IMG/VR virus record: IMGVR_UViG_3300045988_106014
Length of the DNA stretch: 35,938 nucleotides
Strand: one strand, 5' to 3'
Source of the DNA: a virus
The notes beneath the pieces were generated by a model. That model saw only the letters and a program-made list of their open reading frames with translations. It made no database searches and was not told where the DNA came from. Shown one piece after another: positions 5,158-35,196 of this stretch. Positions within the stretch are counted from its first letter, which is position 1. Every line of letters begins with the position of its first letter. A program made the translations under genes and the position numbers.

Positions 5158-6347
5158 TCGGTTTCACCTCCCGACTTCGTTTGTTTTACGGGCGCGGTGT
5201 CAAGACGGCGGATGGGTTCGTCACCGCCTGCCACAGGGGCAAGGCCAAAGACAGCGCGCCACTCGTTGGGCAGCATAGCGCCGCGGTCAACCATGGATTC
5301 AAGGGAAAGTTTCGTGCTCATGCTGGCGTATTGCAGATTTGAACTTTCCAGATACAGCTTGTTCCCGAATGCGCGCTGCCGACGGTTCCACAGTTTGCGT
5401 GTGTGCTCGGCAGCGATTTGCAGCAGATCGGGTTCAACTTGGGCTTCGTAGTAGCTTATCCACTCATTTTCCGAAAAAGAGGATTTCACGATTTTTTCGT
5501 TTGTGTTGAAGAAGCTGTACAGCCGCGTGATGTTGTTTTGACTTTGCAGGGCGTTTGGCACATAGTCGTGCGGCTCCAACTGCACGGCATCGGCCTTTAC
5601 GTCCGTACCTGCAACGCCCGTGCTGTTGTTGTTATCAAGGAAAGCATCGGCAAAGTCCTTTGTCTGCTTCTTGATGTCCTCCGGGCGCATACCGCTGGAT
5701 GTGAATTTCAGCAGCCATCGGATGACCGCGCCGTTGCGAACAGCGTTGATGATGCTGCGGTCAGTCGTGCCGATGACTTCCATGACGCTTTGAAGCGCAG
5801 GGCCGGGCGGCGTGCCGAACACGTCATTTTCGTTGTAATCGTTGCGCAGATGGATAACGTCGGTATAGGCAAACGTCCATGTGCTGCCGTTCGGCAACCA
5901 GAATTGCAGCAGCAGTTCGCCCGCTTTGTTATAGAGGGCCTGCACACTGCTGGCGACGATGGGAAACAGCGCAACGGGGAAACCGTTGTCATCGCGCTGG
6001 ATAAGCGCAAACGCATTGTTGTTCAAGATCAACTGCGTTTCCATTTTCTCCGCGTACATCTGCCACGTCATGTACTGGTTCGGTTCTTCCAGCAGCAGGC
6101 GAATGTAGGGGTCTGGGTTCGTCTGCGTGTTGGTTTTGCCGTCCGGGCCGATGGTCGTTCGGATGTGGCGCGGCATGGCCTTGCCCACGGCCTTGATTTT
6201 CGGGCGGATGCAGGCGCGCACGATGTCGCTTTTGTACAGGTTCCCGTCGTAGACATACAGGCCGTTGCCTGTCTCCGTTACCATCTTGACTTGTGCTGCG
6301 GTGGGACTGCGGGCGACAGCCGCGCGCAACCGTTGAAAAATTCCCAT
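5154..6347 (-). CDS. portal protein, HK97 family
   Basis: 397 aa; position after TerL; 4-nt overlap with the protease gene. Confidence 0.85.
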   Translation of the reverse strand: MGIFQRLRAAVARSPTAAQVKMVTETGNGLYVYDGNLYKSDIVRACIRPKIKAVGKAMPRHIRTTIGPDGKTNTQTNPDPYIRLLLEEPNQYMTWQMYAEKMETQLILNNNAFALIQRDDNGFPVALFPIVASSVQALYNKAGELLLQFWLPNGSTWTFAYTDVIHLRNDYNENDVFGTPPGPALQSVMEVIGTTDRSIINAVRNGAVIRWLLKFTSSGMRPEDIKKQTKDFADAFLDNNNSTGVAGTDVKADAVQLEPHDYVPNALQSQNNITRLYSFFNTNEKIVKSSFSENEWISYYEAQVEPDLLQIAAEHTRKLWNRRQRAFGNKLYLESSNLQYASMSTKLSLESMVDRGAMLPNEWRAVFGLAPVAGGDEPIRRLDTAPVKQTKSGGETE

Positions 6348-6362
6348 GTGGGCATCCTCCGA

Positions 6363-8075
6363 TCAAATCATAGTTTTGTAATCATCCTGTCGGTCTTGGA
6401 ACACAACGAAAGCATCCAGCAGAGCGGCCAGACCGTCAATGCGCTTGCGCGCCTTGCTGGTTTTGTTCGGCTTGATGTTGCCGTTTTTATCTTCCACAAT
6501 GCCCGTGTTAGCAAGGCACCATTTCAAGACAGGGTTATTGTTGTAAATGATAAGTTTGCTATCAAAATCTGCACCTAACTGCTTCATGGGTAGCGACAGC
6601 GTTTTCATGGTCTGCTGCACGGGTACGAACACGCCCTTGCCGAAGGTGTCCTGCATTTCGTCTACCCAGTAGCTTGCAGACCATGCGTCATAGCCGCCAC
6701 AATAGATATAGCAGTCAAGTTCGTTCTGTACTTCAAGGAACCATTCCGTGACATCTTTCTGCCGGACTTTGTTGCCCTCACAGGTACGCAGATAGCCTTG
6801 TTCTTTCCACAGGTCGTAAGGAATACGATCTTCCCGCACGCGGCGTTCAAGCAGTTCTTCGGGCAACCAGAACATACACAGGACATAGATGTGCGGGTCG
6901 CCCGGAACCATGAATATAACGACAGCAGCGGTAAGGTCGGTAGTGCTGGAAAAGTCCGCGCCGCCGATGCCATACCGTGGCCGAAGCTGGCGCACGTCGA
7001 ATGTGGCGGTGTTGTTCAACTGCTCAAAAGTCAGCCATGCTTCGCCGATAGTTTCGGGAATGTTGAAATCCTTGCAAAGCAGGTTCTTCACAAGTTTCGG
7101 GTTTGCAATGGCTTTCTGCACCTTGGCCCGCAACTGCTCCACAGACTTGATCGTACCTAAGCCGGGGTTTGCCTTGGCCCAGCAGCTTTCGTCTGTCCAT
7201 TCCTTGCGGCTGTCCAGTTCGTAGATGACGGGCAGGAAGTGTTCGTTTTTATAGCCGTTGTCGTCATAAAAACCGTTTATGACATTTTCGGCTTCTTGAT
7301 ACAGATCATCGTACAGACCTTCGCGCACCGTGCCCGCCGTGGTAGTCTCGAAGATCATCGGCTGTTCACGGGCGGTCACACCGTCAACAATAACGTCATA
7401 CAGGGCGCGCATAGGCGGTGCCCATGCGTGAATTTCGTCCAGCAGACCGCCGTGAACATTCAAACCATCCTGTGTGTCGCTGTCGTGACCTAGGGGCTTG
7501 TACACGCTGTCGTTGAAGTCGGAAACCATTTCGGCGACAAGCGGCTTGATTTTGCCGTTCGGTGTTTTGCGCGTCCAGTGCAGCACAGGTGACTTGCAGA
7601 CCATGCGGCGGGCTTCCTGCCAGATGATCTTTGCCTGATCTTTTTTGGTGGCGACGGCGTAGATTTCCGCGCCGGGTTCACCGTCTGCAACCATCAAATA
7701 CAGGCCGATGGCCGCAGACAATGTTGACTTGCCGTTTTTACGGGCGACAACAAGCAGGACTTCCCGATACTTTCGCGTTCCGTCAATGACATGGACGAAT
7801 CCGAACATGGCGGCGACAAGCGCTTTTTGCCACAGTTCAAGGATGAACGGCTTGCCGCCCGCTTTGCCTTTGCTATGGCGGCAGTAGTTTTCGATGAACT
7901 CTATTGCATGGTTGGCGCGCTTGGCTTTGTAGGCATAATCGCCGCAGCCGTTGACGACATCCTGCGCAAGTTTGCGGTATACCGTGGCAACCTTTTTACT
8001 GACAACAACCTGTCCGTTTTCAATGGCAGCGTTGTATTCAAGTATCGGGTTGTAGGTCAGTGGATAGCGAATCAA
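6363..8075 (-). CDS. terL: terminase large subunit
   Basis: 570 aa; Walker A-like VVARKNGKST; size and position. Confidence 0.9.
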   Translation of the reverse strand: MIRYPLTYNPILEYNAAIENGQVVVSKKVATVYRKLAQDVVNGCGDYAYKAKRANHAIEFIENYCRHSKGKAGGKPFILELWQKALVAAMFGFVHVIDGTRKYREVLLVVARKNGKSTLSAAIGLYLMVADGEPGAEIYAVATKKDQAKIIWQEARRMVCKSPVLHWTRKTPNGKIKPLVAEMVSDFNDSVYKPLGHDSDTQDGLNVHGGLLDEIHAWAPPMRALYDVIVDGVTAREQPMIFETTTAGTVREGLYDDLYQEAENVINGFYDDNGYKNEHFLPVIYELDSRKEWTDESCWAKANPGLGTIKSVEQLRAKVQKAIANPKLVKNLLCKDFNIPETIGEAWLTFEQLNNTATFDVRQLRPRYGIGGADFSSTTDLTAAVVIFMVPGDPHIYVLCMFWLPEELLERRVREDRIPYDLWKEQGYLRTCEGNKVRQKDVTEWFLEVQNELDCYIYCGGYDAWSASYWVDEMQDTFGKGVFVPVQQTMKTLSLPMKQLGADFDSKLIIYNNNPVLKWCLANTGIVEDKNGNIKPNKTSKARKRIDGLAALLDAFVVFQDRQDDYKTMI

Positions 8076-8443: not shown

Positions 8444-8517
8444 TGCACGCCCTCCCTTGCAAAAAAATATAGGGCCGCAAACCGCCGACATCCATCGACA
8501 GTTTACGGCCCCACTCG

Positions 8518-8546
8518 GCCCTTAGTGCAGACCATTTACTGCACCG
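8518..8546. repeat. 29-bp perfect repeat, copy 1 (GCCCTTAGTGCAGACCATTTACTGCACCG) containing hairpin GTGCAG-N8-CTGCAC
   Basis: Identical 29-mer at 35162..35190. Both copies lie just upstream (minus-strand sense) of a major late gene. Confidence 0.9.
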
Positions 8547-8730
8547 CGCTTTTTTTCACTTTTCGCCGCACTTCCAAAACGATGATTTCACCGTTCTTTC
8601 GGCGCTTGATCTCGGCTGTGTTGCCATGTTCCAGTATGGCGCGCACAGCTTCAATTACATCGTCCGGCAACGTCCGTTCACCTCCGCCCGGATTCCTGCA
8701 AAACAGGAACAAATCTGTTTCATCTGTCAA
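8536..8730 (-). CDS. hypothetical small protein (TTG start)
   Basis: 64-aa ORF with no in-frame ATG and a weak SD. Its last codons lie inside the 29-bp repeat. Confidence 0.4.
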   Translation of the reverse strand: MTDETDLFLFCRNPGGGERTLPDDVIEAVRAILEHGNTAEIKRRKNGEIIVLEVRRKVKKSAVQ

Positions 8731-9220: not shown

Positions 9221-9301
9221 TGATGTGTAGCGGAATCGAACCGCCGCGCTGTGCGCCGTACCTTGCACACCATATAATCCCGGATTGCCCGCCGGGCCGG
9301 G
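9221..9301 (-). ncRNA. tRNA-like structured element A (5' hairpin, 7-bp acceptor-like stem, canonical T-arm GGCGG-TTCGATT-CCGCT); not a canonical tRNA
   Basis: Minus-strand reading CCCGGCCCGGCGGGCAATCCGGGATTATATGGTGTGCAAGGTACGGCGCACAGCGCGGCGGTTCGATTCCGCTACACATCA, in a 270-bp gap. A paralogue lies at 19113..19207. Confidence 0.5.
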
Positions 9302-9412: not shown

Positions 9413-9742
9413 TTAGTGCTTAGGGCTTGCATCTGGAATAAGGCCAGCTTCAAGGGCTAGTGTGTAGCAGTATTCGCGCTTGTAGCGGCGGAAAGTCTTT
9501 TCGCTTATATTCAAGTCGAACTGCCGCAGCAGAGTTGCGACGCTGGGTCTGCGCGGGTGCTTGACGTTCACCTTGATGGCAGCGGCCAGACGGTGCGCTT
9601 CGTCCTGCTGGCCCGCCGGGTATTTGTCGAAGATCATCTGTTCCGCAGTGCACAGGGCTGAAAGATACGGTTCCGTTTTGGCCCCCTGTACCAGCCCTGC
9701 GCAGACCTTGACGATACCGGGCGGCAGGGTGTAGCGGTTCAT
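9413..9742 (-). CDS. HTH protein, candidate late-gene activator (ArpU/RinA-like position and C-terminal HTH)
   Basis: 109 aa; C-terminus ...LLRQFDLNISEKTFRRYKREYCYTLALEAGL resembles sigma region 4/ArpU-type HTH; last gene before the packaging module. Confidence 0.4.
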   Translation of the reverse strand: MNRYTLPPGIVKVCAGLVQGAKTEPYLSALCTAEQMIFDKYPAGQQDEAHRLAAAIKVNVKHPRRPSVATLLRQFDLNISEKTFRRYKREYCYTLALEAGLIPDASPKH

Positions 9743-14363: not shown

Positions 14364-14570
14364 TTATTTCTTCTTTTCGGCAGTTTTGCGGGCTTTATTG
14401 CCTGTTTTCTGCCATTTCGGCAACATTTCGGATAAGGCCATAATATAGAACTGTGCGATAATATCCCGTGTATCATCGGGCAGGGTTTCAAACTGTCGGA
14501 TGATGTCCTGCCGCATCTTGGCGGGGTCGGATGTCTGGGTGCGCCGGATGGGCGCTTGCTTGCTTTTCAC
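14364..14570 (-). CDS. hypothetical small protein
   Basis: 68-aa ORF within a tightly packed array. Confidence 0.45.
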   Translation of the reverse strand: MKSKQAPIRRTQTSDPAKMRQDIIRQFETLPDDTRDIIAQFYIMALSEMLPKWQKTGNKARKTAEKKK

Positions 14571-18634: not shown

Positions 18635-18991
18635 TTACCCGCAAAACGTGCCGTCAGCGTCGTACAGCGCGGGATTCGCGCGGCGGTCACTCCATCCGTA
18701 CTTGATGCCAGCTTCAACAGCAGCGGCCTGCGCGGGCGCAGCCGTGCCGTAACACTGATTCATGGTGCGACATACCGTGTGACGAATTGCCAGTAGTGCG
18801 GCATCCTCTGCATCCACTGCGCAGAGCGGCGCACCTTTCACGCAATAGTAGGTATTGTCACCGGGGTAGACCTTGGCGGGCCGTCCGCAGTCGTATGGGT
18901 TGGGAACATAGGCGAACATCGGCATTCCGGGAAACACGCTGGGGAACATATCGCCGATGCAGGCTTTCGGGGTTTTGGTGGTAGTGTCCAT
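18635..18991 (-). CDS. hypothetical protein
   Basis: 118-aa ORF; AGGAGG SD upstream of ATG 18991. Confidence 0.55.
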   Translation of the reverse strand: MDTTTKTPKACIGDMFPSVFPGMPMFAYVPNPYDCGRPAKVYPGDNTYYCVKGAPLCAVDAEDAALLAIRHTVCRTMNQCYGTAAPAQAAAVEAGIKYGWSDRRANPALYDADGTFCG

Positions 18992-19112
18992 CTTTCAATC
19001 CTCCTGTTTGGTTTTTCTTCCTGCCTTTGCTTCATGCGGCGTTTGGCAGTTCATATAATGCCGGTCTTTCCCGGCTGTCAGCTAAGGAAAAGTATGGAGA
19101 GAAAAAGGGGCA

Positions 19113-19207
19113 GCGGGCTGTCAGAATCGAACTGACCGATGCTGTGAAATCTGCGCCAGCACCCGCACATGTACCCGGCAGGCGCGAACAGGTTTGCCCG
19201 CCGGGGG
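19113..19207 (-). ncRNA. tRNA-like structured element B (10-bp 5' hairpin, acceptor-like stem GCGGGT/GCCCGC, central hairpin TGCTG-N12-CAGCA, perfect T-arm GTCAG-TTCGATT-CTGAC)
   Basis: Minus-strand reading CCCCCGGCGGGCAAACCTGTTCGCGCCTGCCGGGTACATGTGCGGGTGCTGGCGCAGATTTCACAGCATCGGTCAGTTCGATTCTGACAGCCCGC, in a 375-bp gap. Shares CCCGGCGGGCAA and overall architecture with element A. Confidence 0.55.
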
Positions 19208-19365
19208 ATATGGGAAAATCCCACTTAGGTGTCCGGCACCTCTGCGCGGCAGATCAGCGGCCCGCGCAGTGCCCGTTCAGTCGTTCGTACCCCTTTCTGC
19301 AAGATGCGTCCGACTGCTGGTAGCGGTCAGTTCTGCGCCGATACCGCCAAACGCGCATAGAGTTG

Positions 19366-19830
19366 TTATTGATGACACATTTCTTCACACCGCTTATAGC
19401 CTATGTCGTTCCGCAGCATGTCCGCATTTGTGACGGCCTGCGAAAGAATGCAGATTCGTGTGCAACCAGAAATCTGAATTTTATGGGACGAAAAGCCGTT
19501 CTTATAGTGCAGCACCATCCAACTGCCGCCGCCAGCCGTGCAGTTATAACCTTCCGAAACAGAATATTCCAACTTCTCAAATTCCGGCATACTGATGCGC
19601 AGCATTTCCGAAATACTGCGCATGAAGTTTTTAGTCGGCGGGCATCCGTGGCGGATGGCGGTGACAGCTTCAACAGCTGACGGCGGCATGATCTTTGCGG
19701 CGCGGTCTGCCTGTTCGGCTATGATGGTGAACAAATCGGCAAGGGCCTGCGTCTTGACGGTAAGGGCATCTATTTTTTCGTTAGCTTCGTCAGTGTTCAG
19801 CGTGACGGCAATTTCGAAATCTTTATTCAT
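19366..19830 (-). CDS. hypothetical protein
   Basis: Start at ATG 19830, overlapping the stop of the upstream gene (ATGA): MNKDFEIAVTLNTDEANEK... Confidence 0.5.
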   Translation of the reverse strand: MNKDFEIAVTLNTDEANEKIDALTVKTQALADLFTIIAEQADRAAKIMPPSAVEAVTAIRHGCPPTKNFMRSISEMLRISMPEFEKLEYSVSEGYNCTAGGGSWMVLHYKNGFSSHKIQISGCTRICILSQAVTNADMLRNDIGYKRCEEMCHQ

Positions 19831-20090
19831 TCTGTTCCTTTCTTTGCACCCGCCAGGGAACGGCCACGGCGCTTGATGTTCTGATCGACAGTCTGCTGTG
19901 CCTTGGCGGCGCTGTACGCGCGGCATCCCTTGGGATTGAACGCGCCTGTATAGCCGCGTGCCAACTCTCTATATAGAGTAGCAAGGGAAACGTCCACCGC
20001 CGCCGCGATGGTCGGCAGTGGCGTTCCAGCGTCGTATAAAGTCGCAATAAGCTGTCGATCTTTTTGGGTGATTACCTTGTACTTCCGCAT
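19827..20090 (-). CDS. standalone IS30-type N-terminal HTH protein (regulator candidate)
   Basis: 87 aa. ITQKDRQLIATLYDAGTPLPTIAAAVDVSLATLYRELARG aligns position-for-position with LTYTDRLRIEKWLKDGYTYRQIADKLRVHISTIYREIKKG of the adjacent transposase. Confidence 0.6.
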   Translation of the reverse strand: MRKYKVITQKDRQLIATLYDAGTPLPTIAAAVDVSLATLYRELARGYTGAFNPKGCRAYSAAKAQQTVDQNIKRRGRSLAGAKKGTE

Positions 20091-20154: not shown

Positions 20155-21296
20155 ATTGTACCAGTCGCCGACCGCGGAGTCAATAGGTTTACGCAAAAAA
20201 GATGAAATTTAATTTTGTTGCATAGCGGAAAGGCATTCTTTGAAAGCCATGTCGGCGGTTTTGTAGCCTAGGATTTTGCGGGGGAAGCTGTTCATCCATG
20301 ATTCTACTTGTCGGACGGTGTAGGATGTTACTTTGGCAAAGTTCGTCCCTTTCGGAAACTGGCGGCGAATCATGCGGTTAAGATTTTCATTTGACCCGCG
20401 TTCCCAACTGCTGTACGGATGGCAATAGTAAATATGCGTGCGATTGCCCTTGCAGGCGATTGATTTTAGCATTCCTTCAAGGTCAGAAAATTCAACGCCG
20501 TTGTCTACGGTGATAGATTTAAAGATTTCGCGGAAAGCCGCACCGAAGCGCCGTTCAAGCCGATTCAAGGCCCGGACGGTGCTTTTTGCTGTCCTGTCCT
20601 GCATCAAGACTATAATTTCCTTGCGTGTCTTACGCTCGGTCAGCACAAGCAGGCAGCGGCGCGTGCTGTTTTTTGATGAATAGACGGTGTCCATTTCCCA
20701 GTGTCCGAACTCGTCGCGGGTGTCGATACTTTCGGGGCGGTTGTCGATGATCTCGCCAACAGGCGGGCGGGATGCCTTGCGTACCTTGTGATGCTTTTTG
20801 CCACGGCGGGCTTTTTCTGGCAAATCCTCGTTTGTCAGATTCAAAAACACGCCTTTTTCAATGTAGCTGTAAATCGTTTCGGCGCATACGGATGTTTTAA
20901 ACGTGCGTCCTTCCAGCGCGGCGCAGGCCAGCGCGGCAGCGGGCGAACATTTCTTAGTCAAGATCGTATTTTCTATGTAGGCGGCAAGCTCGTGATCTTT
21001 ACCGATTTTCAATTCTGCACCCTTGGCGCGAAGATTGTCTTGATAGTACTTTTCGGCAATGTCGGGGCTGTATGCGGCCTTATATTCGTATGTCCTGTAG
21101 TCTAAACGCTGGTACTCGCCCTTTTTGATTTCGCGGTAGATGGTGCTGATATGCACGCGCAGTTTGTCCGCAATCTGACGGTAGGTATAGCCGTCTTTCA
21201 GCCATTTTTCAATACGCAGACGATCAGTGTAGGTCAGATGTTTATACGCGCGTGCCATGGTTCAAGCCTCCCGTATGTGCCCACCGGGGCAGTATA
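20155..21296 (-). mobile_element. IS30-family element (boundaries approximate; inverted repeats not resolved)
   Basis: Single DDE transposase ORF with lower GC than its flanks (spot counts 40-48% against mid-50s). Bounded by the stop of ORF 21297..21455 and the terminator/HTH gene. Confidence 0.4.
20209..21258 (-). CDS. IS30-family DDE transposase
   Basis: 349 aa; HTH ...STIYREIKKGEY; catalytic region HWEMDTV ... TVDNGVEF ... ERGSNENLNRMIRR. Confidence 0.9.
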   Translation of the reverse strand: MARAYKHLTYTDRLRIEKWLKDGYTYRQIADKLRVHISTIYREIKKGEYQRLDYRTYEYKAAYSPDIAEKYYQDNLRAKGAELKIGKDHELAAYIENTILTKKCSPAAALACAALEGRTFKTSVCAETIYSYIEKGVFLNLTNEDLPEKARRGKKHHKVRKASRPPVGEIIDNRPESIDTRDEFGHWEMDTVYSSKNSTRRCLLVLTERKTRKEIIVLMQDRTAKSTVRALNRLERRFGAAFREIFKSITVDNGVEFSDLEGMLKSIACKGNRTHIYYCHPYSSWERGSNENLNRMIRRQFPKGTNFAKVTSYTVRQVESWMNSFPRKILGYKTADMAFKECLSAMQQN

Positions 21297-23864: not shown

Positions 23865-24197
23865 TTACACCCCCATCATAACGGCCAGTGTGTCATAGAT
23901 TGCGTTGATTTGTTCCTGCACAGTGGGCAGGGGTTCATCCTCTGCCCATGCGGCGGCATACGTCCACCAATCGTCAAACTTGGCGTTGATGGTATCGGCG
24001 GTTTCACCGGAACGGTCTGCACCCAACTTGCCGATGGCAGTTTCACACTGCCACAGTTTAGCATCAGGCGTTTCATCACCGGTATCAGTTTCAACCTGTT
24101 TGGCGTTTTTACGCAAATACAGCCATGTCGTGCCATCGGGCAAGGGTTCCAGCGTAACGGCAGCAGGTTTGTTGTCGAGGGATTCCGTAATAATCAT
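23865..24197 (-). CDS. XkdW-position hypothetical protein (acidic, 110 aa)
   Basis: Start at ATG 24197, overlapping the RT stop (ATGA): MIITESLDNKPAAVTLEPL... Confidence 0.5.
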   Translation of the reverse strand: MIITESLDNKPAAVTLEPLPDGTTWLYLRKNAKQVETDTGDETPDAKLWQCETAIGKLGADRSGETADTINAKFDDWWTYAAAWAEDEPLPTVQEQINAIYDTLAVMMGV

Positions 24198-25426
24198 ACG
24201 GCAAGGCTCCTTTCTTTGATCGCGGCGGCGCGCACCGCCCATTTTGCAGATTTGAATAGTTTTTGCTGGTTCAACGCTTCGGCAGCAGCGCGGGATTTTG
24301 TGCCCTTGAAATATCCGTTGTAGCTTATCAGGCGGTACGAACGGTAAAGCGGGATGAAGTGGCTGCGCTTCAAGTCTGCCCCTGCGCGCATATACTGCCG
24401 CCGTGCTCGCTTAAAAATACCCGGGCGAACGGTAGTATAGGTGCGGTGCATGACATACCCTGCCATATCCAGACCGGGGCAACCTTTGGCCGCGCCTTTC
24501 AGGTGTCGGCGGCGGTGTTCCTCTGCCGGGGATAGAAAGTCAACGCGCACCCAACTGTCCTTGATTGTCAGGTGCAGCGTGTCTTTGACCCATTTTGTAA
24601 TCTTACGGGCCGCGCTCTGGATGTCAGCCCATCGTCGGCCCATCAACACAAGATCGTCCATATAGCTGCCACTGCGCACCACAAGCGGCACGGACACACC
24701 GCGCCGGGTCTTGACATAGCCAAGGATGCGGACAAGAATATAACTTGCGACAAGATTGAACATCCATGCTTCCAGATAGCCGCCGATCAGCAAGCCGCCG
24801 TTCGGTGACATTGCCAGCAGGCAGCGCACAACGGCCAGCAGCCAAGCGGCGAGCGGAATTTCATATTGCAGAATCGCAAGCACAAGTTCCTGTTTCGTAT
24901 GCTCGTATGCGCCTTTGACATCCAGTTTTAAGGCGTGCTGGATGCCAAGACTTTTACGGCGCAGCCATCGTTCAACTTGCCGCTTTAGTGCCGTCTGGCC
25001 TTTCTTCGGGATGCTGGCGAACTGATACGGCAACAGTCTTGCGCGCAGCAGTGGCCGCAGGCCAAGATAGGCCAGATGCCCGAAACATTGATGCAGCGGG
25101 CAGCAGTCAGACAACTGCCGCAGTTTCATACTGATACCATCAATGCGCGGGAAAGTATGCACCGGGTCAAGGTCAAGATCGTTTGCACTGCCGTCCAGCG
25201 GATCATCAATGCGCTGTTCCATTTCAAGGGCAATGCCGTGAACTACTTCAAGGCGCGGCCCCATATCCGCCACGCGGGCGGCGGTCTGTAATTCTGCACG
25301 GGTAACACCTCCGTACTTTTCCGCCATAGCCAGATAATTACGACGGAACCATTTATCGTTAAAGGCTTCTAAGGCCGCTTGCTCACACAGTTCATGTGTA
25401 AGCGGCATATATCTGTTCTTTTTCAA
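24194..25426 (-). CDS. reverse transcriptase of a diversity-generating retroelement
   Basis: 410 aa; YMDD at 24653..24664; LDVKGAYEH (motif 3); LIGGYLEAWMFN (motif 4); lies directly downstream of TR. Confidence 0.9.
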   Translation of the reverse strand: MKKNRYMPLTHELCEQAALEAFNDKWFRRNYLAMAEKYGGVTRAELQTAARVADMGPRLEVVHGIALEMEQRIDDPLDGSANDLDLDPVHTFPRIDGISMKLRQLSDCCPLHQCFGHLAYLGLRPLLRARLLPYQFASIPKKGQTALKRQVERWLRRKSLGIQHALKLDVKGAYEHTKQELVLAILQYEIPLAAWLLAVVRCLLAMSPNGGLLIGGYLEAWMFNLVASYILVRILGYVKTRRGVSVPLVVRSGSYMDDLVLMGRRWADIQSAARKITKWVKDTLHLTIKDSWVRVDFLSPAEEHRRRHLKGAAKGCPGLDMAGYVMHRTYTTVRPGIFKRARRQYMRAGADLKRSHFIPLYRSYRLISYNGYFKGTKSRAAAEALNQQKLFKSAKWAVRAAAIKERSLAV

Positions 25427-25676
25427 ACCCTCAAAGCCTTTCGTTCTTGCTGATGTTCAACGACGTTCGGTTGCTGTGGCCCTTGCAGCAGGGCCGCAGT
25501 ATCTACTACTAGCCGCCACGCAGGCCCATGGCCTGCGGCCATACACACCACCCCGCGCGTATCTCTCGCATCGGCGCAGCTATATGGTGTCGGTATCACA
25601 TGATCTTAGCGGTCAAAGCCGCAGGCGCGGTACAACGCTTTTGCCCGCATTGTGCGGACTTTATTTTCATCAGCAT

Positions 25677-25819
25677 GGCGGGGCGAACCGTTCCAATTCG
25701 AGTTCGCGGGCGAATTGTTGCCATTCGCGCACGGGATGCCACACGCGCCATTGTCGTTAAGATTGCCAGAACGCCAAGGCGCGTACAGGCCCGCACTACC
25801 GGGGGAATTGAAAGCCGCC
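25677..25819 (-). repeat. DGR template repeat (TR), 143 bp
   Basis: Aligns with 25940..26082 at an offset of 263. The 12 mismatches are all T in TR on the plus strand, which is A on the transcribed strand. Confidence 0.9.
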
Positions 25820-25895: not shown

Positions 25896-27629
25896 TTACG
25901 CGCTCACCCATTCACCCCGCTTTTTACCGCTTCCTGCAAGGCGGGGCGAACCGTACCAATACGAGATCGCGGGCGAATAGTTGCCATGCGCGCACGGGAG
26001 GCCACACGCGCCATGGCCGTAAAGATGGCCAGAACGCCAAGGCGCGTACAGGCCCGCACTACCGGGGGAAGCGAAAGCCGCCCGCACATAGGTGGAATCA
26101 CTGCCGCCAAATTTCACAGGGTTCATGGATTCAGCGGCAAGTTTGTTCAGTGCGCGGATATAGTTCCAACTCCATTTGTTGGCGTTGGGCAGATCGAACG
26201 AACTGGTCTTTTCATAGTTCGCCGTGATGCTGCCCGCCTGTTTCTCGGAATCGCGGCAGGAATAGACATCATAGTGCCAGTGATCGTCAACAAGACTTGC
26301 CTGCCACAGCGGGTCGAGTTGTTCGGTATAGTTGCCGATCTGCATTTCAACGCCTGCCACGCGGTAGGGGTATTTACCATTCGTCAGGTTGCCCATGCAG
26401 CCATCACTATGACCGGGCAGACATTCCGTCGTGCCGGACGGCCAAGGCATGGTAGACAGCAGCATGGTAGTGGTCGGGGAAATGGCATCCGTCAAATCCA
26501 GATTCACAATGCCGTATTCCACGCCGCCGATAACTTCGGATGTGACGCTGACGACCTTTGCCCAGTTGAAAATATTGTGGTTGTAGGACTGGTTTCTATC
26601 GGTGGTGGGGCTGGTTTCGCCGCTGCGCTCACCCAGACACACGCCGGAACCGGGCAGGATGTTTGCGGCCTGCGCCGTAGTCAGCACAACGCGCTTGACG
26701 TTCGCTTCGGCCACGGCGGGGGTATACTGGTAATTGTAGGACGTGCAGCCCTCCAACTTGCCGCTGTTGCTCTTTGTCCAGTGGCGCAGCCGCCATGCGG
26801 ACAAGGCAAACTGCTGATCACAGTCGTTCCACAGTCCTTCGTATGTGGTAGTTTTACGTGCCAGAGGGATGCCAGCGTTGGCACTGACCCAGACCATGGG
26901 CGGCTTGCCGATGCCGCTTGTCATTCCGCCCTTCGTGTTCAGACCGCCGCAGTAGGCGGGATGCCATGTCATAACGCGCATCGTGCCATCGGGGGCCACG
27001 TCACCAGCCATCGGCACATAGCCGTTGCCGGGATAGGTGCGCCAACTGTTATACATATAGCTGGCATCTTCCCATTCTTTCAGGCACAGCGCCAAAGAGA
27101 AGCAGTAGACGGGGGCGGTTTCGCCCGTGATGTCAAACTCGCGTTCACCTTCCAGCGCAAGGATGTTCATAGTGCCATCGGCAAGGCTCAAAGCATTACC
27201 GCGAATGTACCACGTCATCAAATCTTCTTCGGCCCAGTCGGTTACATCGGTGGTTGTATCGGTCACAAGCGGTGCGGCGGAACGGCCATCCGCCAGATCG
27301 TCCAGCGGCGTACCCGTGTAGTCAGAAGATACCGTGTCCAGATAGAAGCGCAGCGTGTAGGCCAGTTTGTACCCGGCTTTTGCCATCATGGCAAAGAAGC
27401 GGCACAGGCGGTCATACTTCGATGCACCGCCGGTGGCGCTCAACGGCCACCAAAGCCAAAATACTTTTGTAGTGTTCGTGCCGTCCAGCAGTGCGCCAAA
27501 ACTCGCATCAATGAATTCGGCGCTTGCGTTGCCTGCCGCAATCGCGGCCAGCAATTCCGTCTGCTGCGACATGAGATCACGCATTTCTTTGCCTGTGTCA
27601 TCGGTAAAAGGAAAACATACAGGGTTCAT
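25896..27629 (-). CDS. DGR target / variable protein, probable distal receptor-binding protein (C-type-lectin-like VR at the C-terminus)
   Basis: 577 aa. The C-terminus ...SPGSAGLYAPWRSGHLYGHGACGLPCAHGNYSPAISYWYGSPRL is encoded by VR. Follows the tail fibre genes. Confidence 0.85.
   Translation of the reverse strand: MNPVCFPFTDDTGKEMRDLMSQQTELLAAIAAGNASAEFIDASFGALLDGTNTTKVFWLWWPLSATGGASKYDRLCRFFAMMAKAGYKLAYTLRFYLDTVSSDYTGTPLDDLADGRSAAPLVTDTTTDVTDWAEEDLMTWYIRGNALSLADGTMNILALEGEREFDITGETAPVYCFSLALCLKEWEDASYMYNSWRTYPGNGYVPMAGDVAPDGTMRVMTWHPAYCGGLNTKGGMTSGIGKPPMVWVSANAGIPLARKTTTYEGLWNDCDQQFALSAWRLRHWTKSNSGKLEGCTSYNYQYTPAVAEANVKRVVLTTAQAANILPGSGVCLGERSGETSPTTDRNQSYNHNIFNWAKVVSVTSEVIGGVEYGIVNLDLTDAISPTTTMLLSTMPWPSGTTECLPGHSDGCMGNLTNGKYPYRVAGVEMQIGNYTEQLDPLWQASLVDDHWHYDVYSCRDSEKQAGSITANYEKTSSFDLPNANKWSWNYIRALNKLAAESMNPVKFGGSDSTYVRAAFASPGSAGLYAPWRSGHLYGHGACGLPCAHGNYSPAISYWYGSPRLAGSGKKRGEWVSA
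25940..26082 (-). repeat. DGR variable repeat (VR), 143 bp, inside the 3' end of ORF 25896..27629
   Basis: See TR. The invariant GC-rich 3' end CGGTTCGCCCCGCC (coding strand, 25940-25953) is IMH-like. Confidence 0.9.
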
Positions 27630-35126: not shown

Positions 35127-35161
35127 ACGTCGCCGCCCCCTTTCCGTAGCGGCTCCATTTA

Positions 35162-35190
35162 GCCCTTAGTGCAGACCATTTACTGCACCG
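35162..35190. repeat. 29-bp perfect repeat, copy 2 (identical to 8518..8546)
   Basis: GCCCTTAGTGCAGACCATTTACTGCACCG, 36 nt upstream (minus sense) of the tape measure start. Confidence 0.9.
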
Positions 35191-35196
35191 TTAATA

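Follow-up and report, generated by a model that had tools for sequence, protein, structure and literature searches.

The window analyzed here is the whole 35,938-nt stretch of IMG/VR record IMGVR_UViG_3300045988_106014, to which all window coordinates refer, and it carries two copies, designated A and B, of a small tRNA-like element. Open reading frame (ORF) and protein family scans identify it as a siphovirus-like phage genome transcribed nearly entirely leftward, coding for TerL, portal, major head, tape measure, endolysin, replication initiator, and ParA/ParB-like proteins, as well as an IS30-type transposase and a reverse transcriptase (RT). The scans turned up no integrase gene of the tyrosine or serine type in the window, only that for the transposase. 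Element B lies in a 374-nt intergenic gap (18992..19365) between minus-strand ORFs 19366..19926 and 18635..18991, with a 118-aa ORF and a Lin1244_N replication initiator gene (~0.5 kb away) downstream; element A, also intergenic, lies 1.1 kb upstream of TerL and is followed by HNH, terS, and TerL genes. Each copy is thus positioned at a module boundary of a transcript running in one direction. Searches of deposited phages (INPHARED) by megablast with 24 kb of the window and by blastn with both intergenic regions gave nothing useful or similar. An ORF upstream of A was considered as a late regulator and dropped, having neither a family match nor similarity to its counterpart in the related phage L021.

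Read 5' to 3' on the minus strand, element B consists of a hairpin (P1), a short linker, and a tRNA-like part in which an acceptor-like helix encloses a connector and a T-arm. Its parts are as follows.

19205..19113, minus strand: element B as a whole, read from the sequence.
19174..19205, minus strand: P1 hairpin of 10 bp with one G.U pair, formed by CCCGGCGGGC (19205..19196), a 12-nt loop, and GCCTGCCGGG (19183..19174).
19167..19173, minus strand: linker TACATGT, 7 nt and A/U-rich, with U(-1) followed by G(+1).
19161..19166, minus strand: acceptor-like helix 5' strand GCGGGT, whose partner is 19118..19113.
19137..19160, minus strand: connector, made of the hairpin GCTG-N12-CAGC (19160..19141, containing GG) and ATCG.
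19120..19136, minus strand: T-arm GTCAG-TTCGATT-CTGAC with a canonical tRNA T-loop, also aligned to the tRNA-Sec model.
19113..19119, minus strand: unpaired purine A (19119; the 7:66 position) and acceptor-like 3' strand GCCCGC (19118..19113).
19096..19112, minus strand: pyrimidine-rich tail TGCCCCTTTTTCTCTCC.

Element A, the paralogue of B, has the same order of parts.

9222..9296, minus strand: element A as a whole.
9296..9279, minus strand: P1, CCCGG-N8-CCGGG.
9278..9272, minus strand: linker ATTATAT.
9271..9266, minus strand: acceptor-like 5' strand GGTGTG.
9265..9246, minus strand: connector with GCGC-ACA-GCGC.
9245..9229, minus strand: T-arm GGCGG-TTCGATT-CCGCT.
9228, minus strand: single A.
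9227..9222, minus strand: acceptor-like 3' strand CACATC.

The features that the initial annotation listed for B, which was made from the sequence of this window, are all present where it placed them, on the minus strand, although two need adjustment. The central hairpin exists, but the first T of the 5-bp form that had been described belongs to the acceptor strand, leaving a 4-bp GCTG/CAGC stem; a 7-bp alternative, GGTGCTG/CAGCATC, competes with the acceptor helix. Similarly, the single A between the T-stem and the 3' strand is found in A and B of the window, but is a G in several B variants, and this purine is best read as a non-canonical 7:66 position.

Several lines of evidence relate the two copies. 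The 12-mer CCCGGCGGGCAA was correctly recognized at the outset as common to A and B and is exact in both; at up to one mismatch the window has four matches (two of them exact) against 0.33 expected, and the 1-mismatch copies at 9609 and 14955 were rejected as lying in coding sequence, as was a third-copy candidate at 14405..14486. A descriptor defined post hoc (a 5-bp stem, a TTCRANN loop, and a 6-bp closing helix 8 to 30 nt upstream and 0 to 1 nt downstream) picks out A and B, both on the minus strand, and no other site in the window, and averages 0.15 sites in 300 dinucleotide shuffles, three of which have two or more. A covariance model built solely from six sequences of the A type and of type C, its homologue in a sister lineage (model R1), detects B as its second-best match in the window (24.2 bits, E = 1.6e-4; the next match scores 9.8 bits) and aligns it with the same architecture of P1 base, linker, closing helix, and T-arm. 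That B is detected by a model made without it bears out the proposal that the two form a single two-copy family of structured RNAs.

Searching IMG/VR with a pattern running from the 12-mer to the T-loop yields 30 loci in three length classes, corresponding to the A type, the B type, and type C; the sister lineage, whose type C has a GGTACA/TGTACC helix, has its own B variant, B', in L066 and L067 (relatives are cited by L number). Starting from homologues of the 118-aa protein, whose gene directly follows B, further B variants were reached in L122, L124, and L130-L132, as was an integrated, decaying prophage in an NCBI assembly that adjoins SCIFF and radical-SAM genes, which suggests a Clostridia host. 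All genomes with enough sequence have two copies ~9.9 kb apart at fixed syntenic positions, with B ahead of the 118-aa ORF and replication initiator, and A or C ahead of HNH, terS, and TerL. Homologues of the HNH and replication initiator proteins at 34 to 56% identity (L050-L058, L075, L077) have no R1 match, scans with conserved flanks for a wider family gained only L129, and a metagenome scan returned the same types and chance matches, with no new type. A GTDB genome pattern scan for the host gave 44 matches of variable length in GC-rich soil and water taxa, which were judged to be chance. By these comparisons the family is real but narrow, belonging to one lineage of metagenomic gut phages. 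We note that the acceptor 3' strand of type C (e.g., L002 1085-1180) is directly followed by TGCCCGCTGG, which is complementary over 10 bp to the P1 5' strand, CCGGCGGGCA, and resembles the acceptor 3' strand of B, and that ~35 to 50 nt downstream of the element both A and C have a near-copy, CCCCGGCGG, of their P1 5' strand.

The helices remain paired while their sequences change. The acceptor-like helix has three different sequences over types A, C, B, and B', GGTGTG/CACATC (A), GGTACA/TGTACC (C), and GCGGGY/GCCCGC (B, B'), each with 6/6 positions paired. In a model-guided alignment of 13 distinct A, C, B, and B' sequences, this closing helix is 100% paired with 5/6 pairs changed on both sides, two T-stem pairs are changed on both sides (GTCAG/CTGAC in B versus GGCGG/CCGCU in A), and the base of P1 is invariant; as a control, shifting the partner by 1 to 3 columns drops pairing from 98.6% to between 31 and 49%. 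Among A and C sequences alone, 3/6 closing-helix pairs are compensatory and one more changes from G.U to G-C. The covariation that had been noted between the two copies of the window thus extends to their homologues, and the family members recovered from IMG/VR keep these stems paired. The G.U pairs in P1, the acceptor helix, and the T-stem are compatible with the minus strand only, and the element is therefore taken, from its pairing pattern, to act as RNA (or as a single strand) in the gene sense.

Variation elsewhere in the element is similarly constrained. The P1 base CCCGG/CCGGG is common to A, B, and C, and the in-helix P1 changes in variants B' and B'' (G-C to G.U, and one U-A) stay paired, with three unpaired cells in the divergent L122 variant; the acceptor-like helix of B' and B'' has a U.G to C-G change. 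Linker length is identical across types (ATTATAT in A, ATATTGT in C, TATATAT in B'), U(-1) and G(+1) are invariant in every variant, and a GG dinucleotide lies 9 to 13 nt after G1 in all types. The nucleotide after the T-stem of B is A in the window and G in several variants, as noted above. A small ORF that would begin with the ATG of the linker was also considered and dismissed, since its frame continues into the HNH gene and type C lacks this ATG.

Neither copy corresponds to a family described in Rfam. ARAGORN finds no tRNA and no tmRNA in the whole window, and a scan with Rfam 15 at gathering thresholds finds only the gut-2 motif and has no match at A or B (YrlA, D12-methyl, GOLLD, and ROOL included). 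In permissive Rfam scans the best match of B within clan CL00001 is tRNA-Sec (RF01852), at 19.7 bits against a gathering score of 47, and A has only a 15-nt match to the T-arm of a cyanobacterial tmRNA model (11.7 bits); YrlA has no match at either locus even at E values up to 10. A search of the accessible literature found no description of such elements, nor of gut-2 or D12-methyl, and the initial impression of an architecture without a described family stands after Rfam, the tRNA and tmRNA finders, and that search.

Comparison with known RNAs places A and B closest to tRNA-like domains. Both have a canonical T-arm (a 5-bp stem, a UUCRANY loop, and G53-C61) on an acceptor helix, and with canonical tRNA genes, including those borne by phages, they have in common the T-loop consensus, G53-C61, G1-C72, and 12 stacked layers of acceptor and T-stem, but they lack the D-stem and anticodon arm and hence the RF00005 cloverleaf. 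Structurally they come nearest to the tRNA-like domain of tmRNA, which also has an acceptor helix of 5' and 3' strands, a stem-less D-loop substitute with GG, a T-arm (GGUUCGAUUCC), and no anticodon arm. In contrast to tmRNA, A and B lack an mRNA-like reading frame and pseudoknots, and have a stub hairpin of 4 bp instead of the long P2 helix; at position 3:70 the pair is U-A in A and C and G-C in B rather than the alanine identity pair G3.U70; no CCA is encoded; the 5' and 3' strands are 44 to 46 nt apart; and the element is ~50 to 55 nt and lies inside an mRNA leader. The bacterial Y-RNA-like YrlA RNAs, some of which are phage encoded, likewise carry an acceptor/T-arm module within a larger RNA, but the window has no Rfam YrlA match, and no Ro/Rsr-type gene was seen among the window ORFs scanned. 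Judged by sequence and fold, A and B are a case of tRNA mimicry within a transcript, and the fold itself is well supported.

We favor, with a probability of roughly 40%, the reading that A and B are cis-encoded tRNA mimics that act as signals for transcript processing by RNase P, and possibly also by RNase Z. In bacteria, RNase P, RNase Z, and the CCA-adding enzyme can each act on a minihelix made of just the acceptor and T-arm, and RNase P prefers sites at which U(-1) precedes G(+1)-C72. The substrate features are present in the sequence: the stack of 6 bp, a 7:66 layer (a purine-purine or C.A mismatch), and 5 bp gives 12 layers as in tRNA; the T-loop is GTTCGATTC with G53-C61; G1-C72 and U(-1) occur in every variant; the connector has its GG; and no variant encodes CCA after the discriminator. 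There is also an A at position -4 in A, B, and B'. Tentatively, A and B would be transcribed in the gene sense within long leftward phage transcripts, and would mimic only that half of a tRNA which is read by processing enzymes, without an anticodon arm, while the unpaired GG of the connector could dock on the T-loop as G18/G19 of the D-loop do. Host RNase P would cut between U(-1) and G(+1), and because no CCA is encoded, RNase Z may cut after the discriminator. These cuts would part the upstream from the downstream message, the latter being that of the replication genes in the case of B and that of the HNH/terminase packaging genes in the case of A. The upstream fragment would end in the GC-rich P1 hairpin with a 7-nt tail, such that P1 caps the new 3' end, whereas the downstream RNA would either start with the compact tRNA-like fold as a 5' cap or have released it; any effect on mRNA stability would follow from these ends.

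Processing signals of this kind have precedents, including the tRNA punctuation of mitochondrial transcripts and mascRNA at the 3' end of MALAT1, and phage RNAs matured by RNase P include the P1 C4 RNA, the P4 CI RNA, and T4 stable RNAs. As proposed for A and B, a tRNA-shaped fold in a longer transcript recruits RNase P/Z to set RNA ends; those systems differ in having experimental cleavage data, where cleavage of A and B is predicted from sequence, and none has the P1-linker-minihelix plan or the sequence of A and B.

A parallel element is present in L021, which has B but not A. At the position of A, upstream of the packaging genes, L021 has an unrelated tRNA-like element.

L021 6223-6280, minus strand: tRNA-like element of 58 nt without an anticodon arm, with a 7-bp acceptor stem, a D-arm, and a T-arm.

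It scores 40.9 bits with the Rfam tRNA model (gathering score 29), is not called by ARAGORN, and is not detected by R1. Its 26-nt T-arm/acceptor core is exact in 76 IMG/VR contigs (including L134-L208), among which are a compensatory D-stem variant (GCTA/TAGC) and covarying upstream hairpins, one form having a GCAA tetraloop and a covarying stem and another a GC-rich stem; an A/U-rich linker follows the hairpin with U just before G1, as in GGGGTTTTATAT followed by GCCCTTG. The L021 element is thus like A and B in lying ahead of the packaging module and in its upstream hairpin, A/U linker with U(-1), G1-C72, and T-arm, and neither has an encoded CCA or an anticodon arm; it is unlike them in its unrelated sequence, real D-arm, 7-bp acceptor stem, and passing of the Rfam tRNA threshold. 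That one position should twice be filled by the same truncated-tRNA shape, built from unrelated sequences, argues that the selected trait would be the shape rather than the sequence. We note that the element is followed in L021 by a D12-methyl RNA motif (RF02950, 91 bits; 5855-5918, minus strand), a DNA methyltransferase gene, and terS, in that order.

It is a speculative further step, which we consider possible though less likely than not, that phages of gut Clostridia have an undescribed class of anticodon-less tRNA mimics used for transcript punctuation or operon insulation. In such a scheme a hairpin-linker-minihelix cassette at module boundaries would have arisen at least twice from unrelated sequences (A/B/C, and the element of the 76 contigs), and would hijack host RNase P/Z, and possibly CCA addition, to turn genome-length transcripts into separately regulated mRNAs; alternatively, released mini-tRNAs may act in trans.

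Element B is embedded in a larger structured leader, forming the core of a conserved intergenic region of ~370 nt in which three or more other hairpins covary. The region is 81.7% identical to that of L122 at the nucleotide level, and the flanking coding sequence 76.7 to 91.8%. Other features of the region are as follows.

19210..19316, minus strand: leader hairpins H2 (19316..19278), H3 (19269..19242), H4 (19241..19227), and H5 (19224..19210), from RNAalifold and pair counts.
19336..19356, minus strand: 21-mer GCGCGTTTGGCGGTATCGGCG at the 5' boundary of the B leader, with no difference among the B-type relatives compared.
19052..19081, minus strand: promoter-like cassette with a hairpin spacer, CTGACAGCCGGGAAAGACCGGCATTATATG, downstream of B, from comparison of B-type loci.

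H3 and H5 each have three double-sided pair changes and H2 has one compensatory pair. Pairing of the 21-mer with 19050..19034 is weakly supported and absent from L129, and a 16-bp long-range closing helix of the B region in the first consensus fold was lost once more sequences were added, with an indel, an A.C break, and no partner in L129. The pyrimidine-rich tail may, tentatively, pair with the H2 loop in a 10-bp helix (GAAAGGGGTA, 19295..19286, with TGCCCCTTTT) that is 100% paired in seven sequences with one double-sided and one one-sided change. The downstream cassette is invariant in B-type loci except for one G (L067) and a T/C position before TATATG; as (C/T)TGACAGCCGGGAAAGACCGGCATT(T)TATATG after a pyrimidine-rich tract, it occurs both in the B 3' region and in the late leader of L021 (~6470-6505, minus strand), where it has a perfect TTGACA. 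It resembles a -35 box, a hairpin spacer, and a weak -10 box, and does not pass a sigma-70 scan; sigma-70 promoters read by eye upstream of A and downstream of B also failed that scan. The leader of the divergent L129 retains the 21-mer, H3, a 12-bp P1, and a linker (ATTGTAT). L129 also has a dispersed repeat of ~40 nt or more, GGTCTGCCCTCATCCGCCGCTGCGGCGGCACCTTCCCCC, in at least five gene-sense copies (4545, 4745, 6180, 6919, 8962), two of them inserted in the B-type leader, suggesting a MITE-like element.

Several observations weigh against the processing reading of A and B. The acceptor-like helix has 6 bp and a mismatch rather than 7 bp, and with UGCC or ACAC as its 3' tail the element cannot engage RNase P through the RCCA contact. 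The covariation statistics are thin, with only ~4 to 6 independent lineages, the A-versus-B alignment was fitted to and by the model, and related sequences can beat every shuffle without any structure. Single-sequence folding energies are unremarkable (minimum free energy z = -1.39 for B and +0.26 for A), and the case consequently rests on comparison. In B the acceptor 3' strand has other possible partners, namely the P1 5' strand (in the tRNA-Sec alignment) and CGGGC at ~19272, and the 10-mer GAACTGACCG (19324-19333) is a perfect complement of the T-arm 5' half CGGTCAGTTC (19129-19138). Both 10-mers are invariant in most B relatives, the upstream one differing in L122 and L124, and the match could be an alternative pairing or chance, with ~0.07 such matches expected, by our own estimate, for a region as large as this one. 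B-type sequences alone cannot rank or exclude these alternative partners, and the GCGGGT/GCCCGC pairing is favored because of homology with A and C. Finally, the L129 leader has no T-arm or closing helix, so the tRNA-like part is a losable module that is dispensable there; the fold of B is present as initially described, but its treatment as a stand-alone unit gives way to that of a core within the ~370-nt region. We note that the sequence features nonetheless favor the RNase P/Z reading, short of proof, over the other roles proposed.

Among those roles, it is less probable that the T-loop fold forms part of a larger cis-regulatory leader, an attenuator or put-like antiterminator that would control read-through into the replication (B) and late packaging (A) genes. 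Two copies each heading a major gene module, and B lying among covarying hairpins, fit such a switch, and there is a parallel in putL and putR of phage HK022, two paralogous, cis-acting structured RNAs each near a major operon start, although the put RNAs are two simple stem-loops with no T-loop and no acceptor-like closure. Mutually exclusive pairings are also available, involving the anti-T-arm 10-mer, the 7-bp versus 4-bp central hairpin, and the P1 5' strand, which can pair with GCCCGCUG in B and with UGCCCGCUGG in type C, but they are not conserved between A and B. A U-run follows B, but it begins 6 nt past the helix, A has no U-tract after it, and no strong minus-strand terminator is predicted downstream of B; late transcription would, however, have to pass a strong 20-bp hairpin with a T7 terminator-like site between HNH and terS. 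The tRNA shape of the unrelated L021 element at the same place is left unexplained by a switch. Somewhat less likely again is a stand-alone decoy, in which an excised mini-tRNA of ~50 to 55 nt would titrate or misdirect a host factor that recognizes the acceptor/T-arm; candidates would be a nucleotidyltransferase, a tRNA-targeting defense toxin, or an enzyme of modification or CCA addition. It would account for the retention of exactly the acceptor/T-arm half without an anticodon arm, in an arrangement like the tRNA-like domain of tmRNA, and these phages do handle tRNA biology, as relatives have genuine tRNA genes directly upstream of B, within the variable region, and a convergent anticodon-less element is common in gut phage contigs. 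However, the wholly different acceptor sequences of A, C, and B argue against a sequence-specific acceptor-binding target, anticodon nucleases (the best-known tRNA-directed defenses) would not see the mimic, neither a promoter nor a terminator of its own is evident around A or B, and L129 does without the tRNA-like part.

We consider it improbable that the elements are nonfunctional relics, either of decaying phage tRNA genes or of a tRNA-derived attachment core, which the initial annotation had also doubted. The T-loop is identical to the tRNA consensus, genuine tRNA genes lie 1 to 3 kb from B in relatives, and the family is narrow, being of one phage lineage, but the T-arm and acceptor sequences of those flanking tRNAs differ and none matches the element. 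A remnant of a 3' half alone does not fit either, as the element retains a 5' strand that changes in concert with the 3' strand, and the helices are kept paired by compensatory changes. Nor does an attP core: in the integrated copy L125 the host genes end ~0.9 to 1.1 kb upstream of the B core, with two phage genes between, and A lies ~10 kb from the prophage end. The two copies occupy the same syntenic places throughout the relatives, the B intergenic region is conserved like the flanking coding sequence, and the window lacks a recognizable tyrosine or serine integrase. We give least credence to a DNA-level site, with B as an origin for the replication initiator and A as a packaging or cos-related site for HNH/terminase. 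The distances to the Lin1244_N gene and to TerL given above, and the GC-rich inverted repeats, would suit such sites, but the G.U (G.T) pairs become A.C mismatches on the other strand, such that one strand only folds, the two arms of P1 are spaced differently from case to case (8, 12, and ~20 nt), which does not resemble a protein operator, and a canonical tRNA T-loop has no known role in DNA.

The window has other features of note. The two gut-2 RNA motifs found by Rfam are at 8501-8548 and 35145-35192, both on the minus strand (54.7 and 53.5 bits; gathering score 39.8). The first, in the interval between HNH and terS, overlaps the 20-bp hairpin and T7 terminator-like site at 8514..8469, which directly precedes the terS ribosome-binding site ~700 nt downstream of A, and the second is immediately upstream of the tape measure gene. 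A probable diversity-generating retroelement comprises an RT ORF (24194-25426, minus strand) and a pair of 147-nt repeats with 91% identity (25673-25819 and 25936-26082); the copy at the 3' end of a 577-aa tail-like ORF (25896-27629) is the presumed variable repeat (VR), and that between this ORF and the RT gene is the presumed template repeat (TR). A variable cargo slot separates the lysis genes from the early genes, and homology among relatives stops at window position 19916. The window has there an IS30-type DDE transposase gene (20209-21258, minus strand; HTH_38 and rve), and relatives (L029 1977-4042; L006, L008, L011, and L019) have genuine tRNA genes instead, in sets of two Ser tRNAs with hisIE- and PHP-like genes (from translations), of Gly/Asn/Leu, or of Pro. 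Short IMG/VR contigs (L005, L006, L008, L011, L016, and L027) join segments of the window in another order, e.g., 22492 beside 18651 and 6685 beside 17899, and are either rearranged or defective prophages or else assembly chimeras.

Elements of this type are likely to be misannotated or missed, as shown by the L021 element, which passes the Rfam tRNA threshold without an anticodon, and by A and B, which are missed by all finders. The family offers a compact substrate of ~95 nt with natural compensatory variants that is directly testable, and the convergent second element is common in gut viromes. Should a leader switch or antiterminator prove correct, A and B would be a new class of T-loop-based regulatory RNA. 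To our knowledge, tRNA-style punctuation is known from organelles and a few eukaryotic non-coding RNAs, and is not described as a recurrent phage strategy. If RNase P/Z are recruited by these elements, temperate phages of abundant gut Firmicutes would use tRNA-style punctuation of their long transcripts, which would be a bacterial-virus counterpart of mitochondrial tRNA punctuation.

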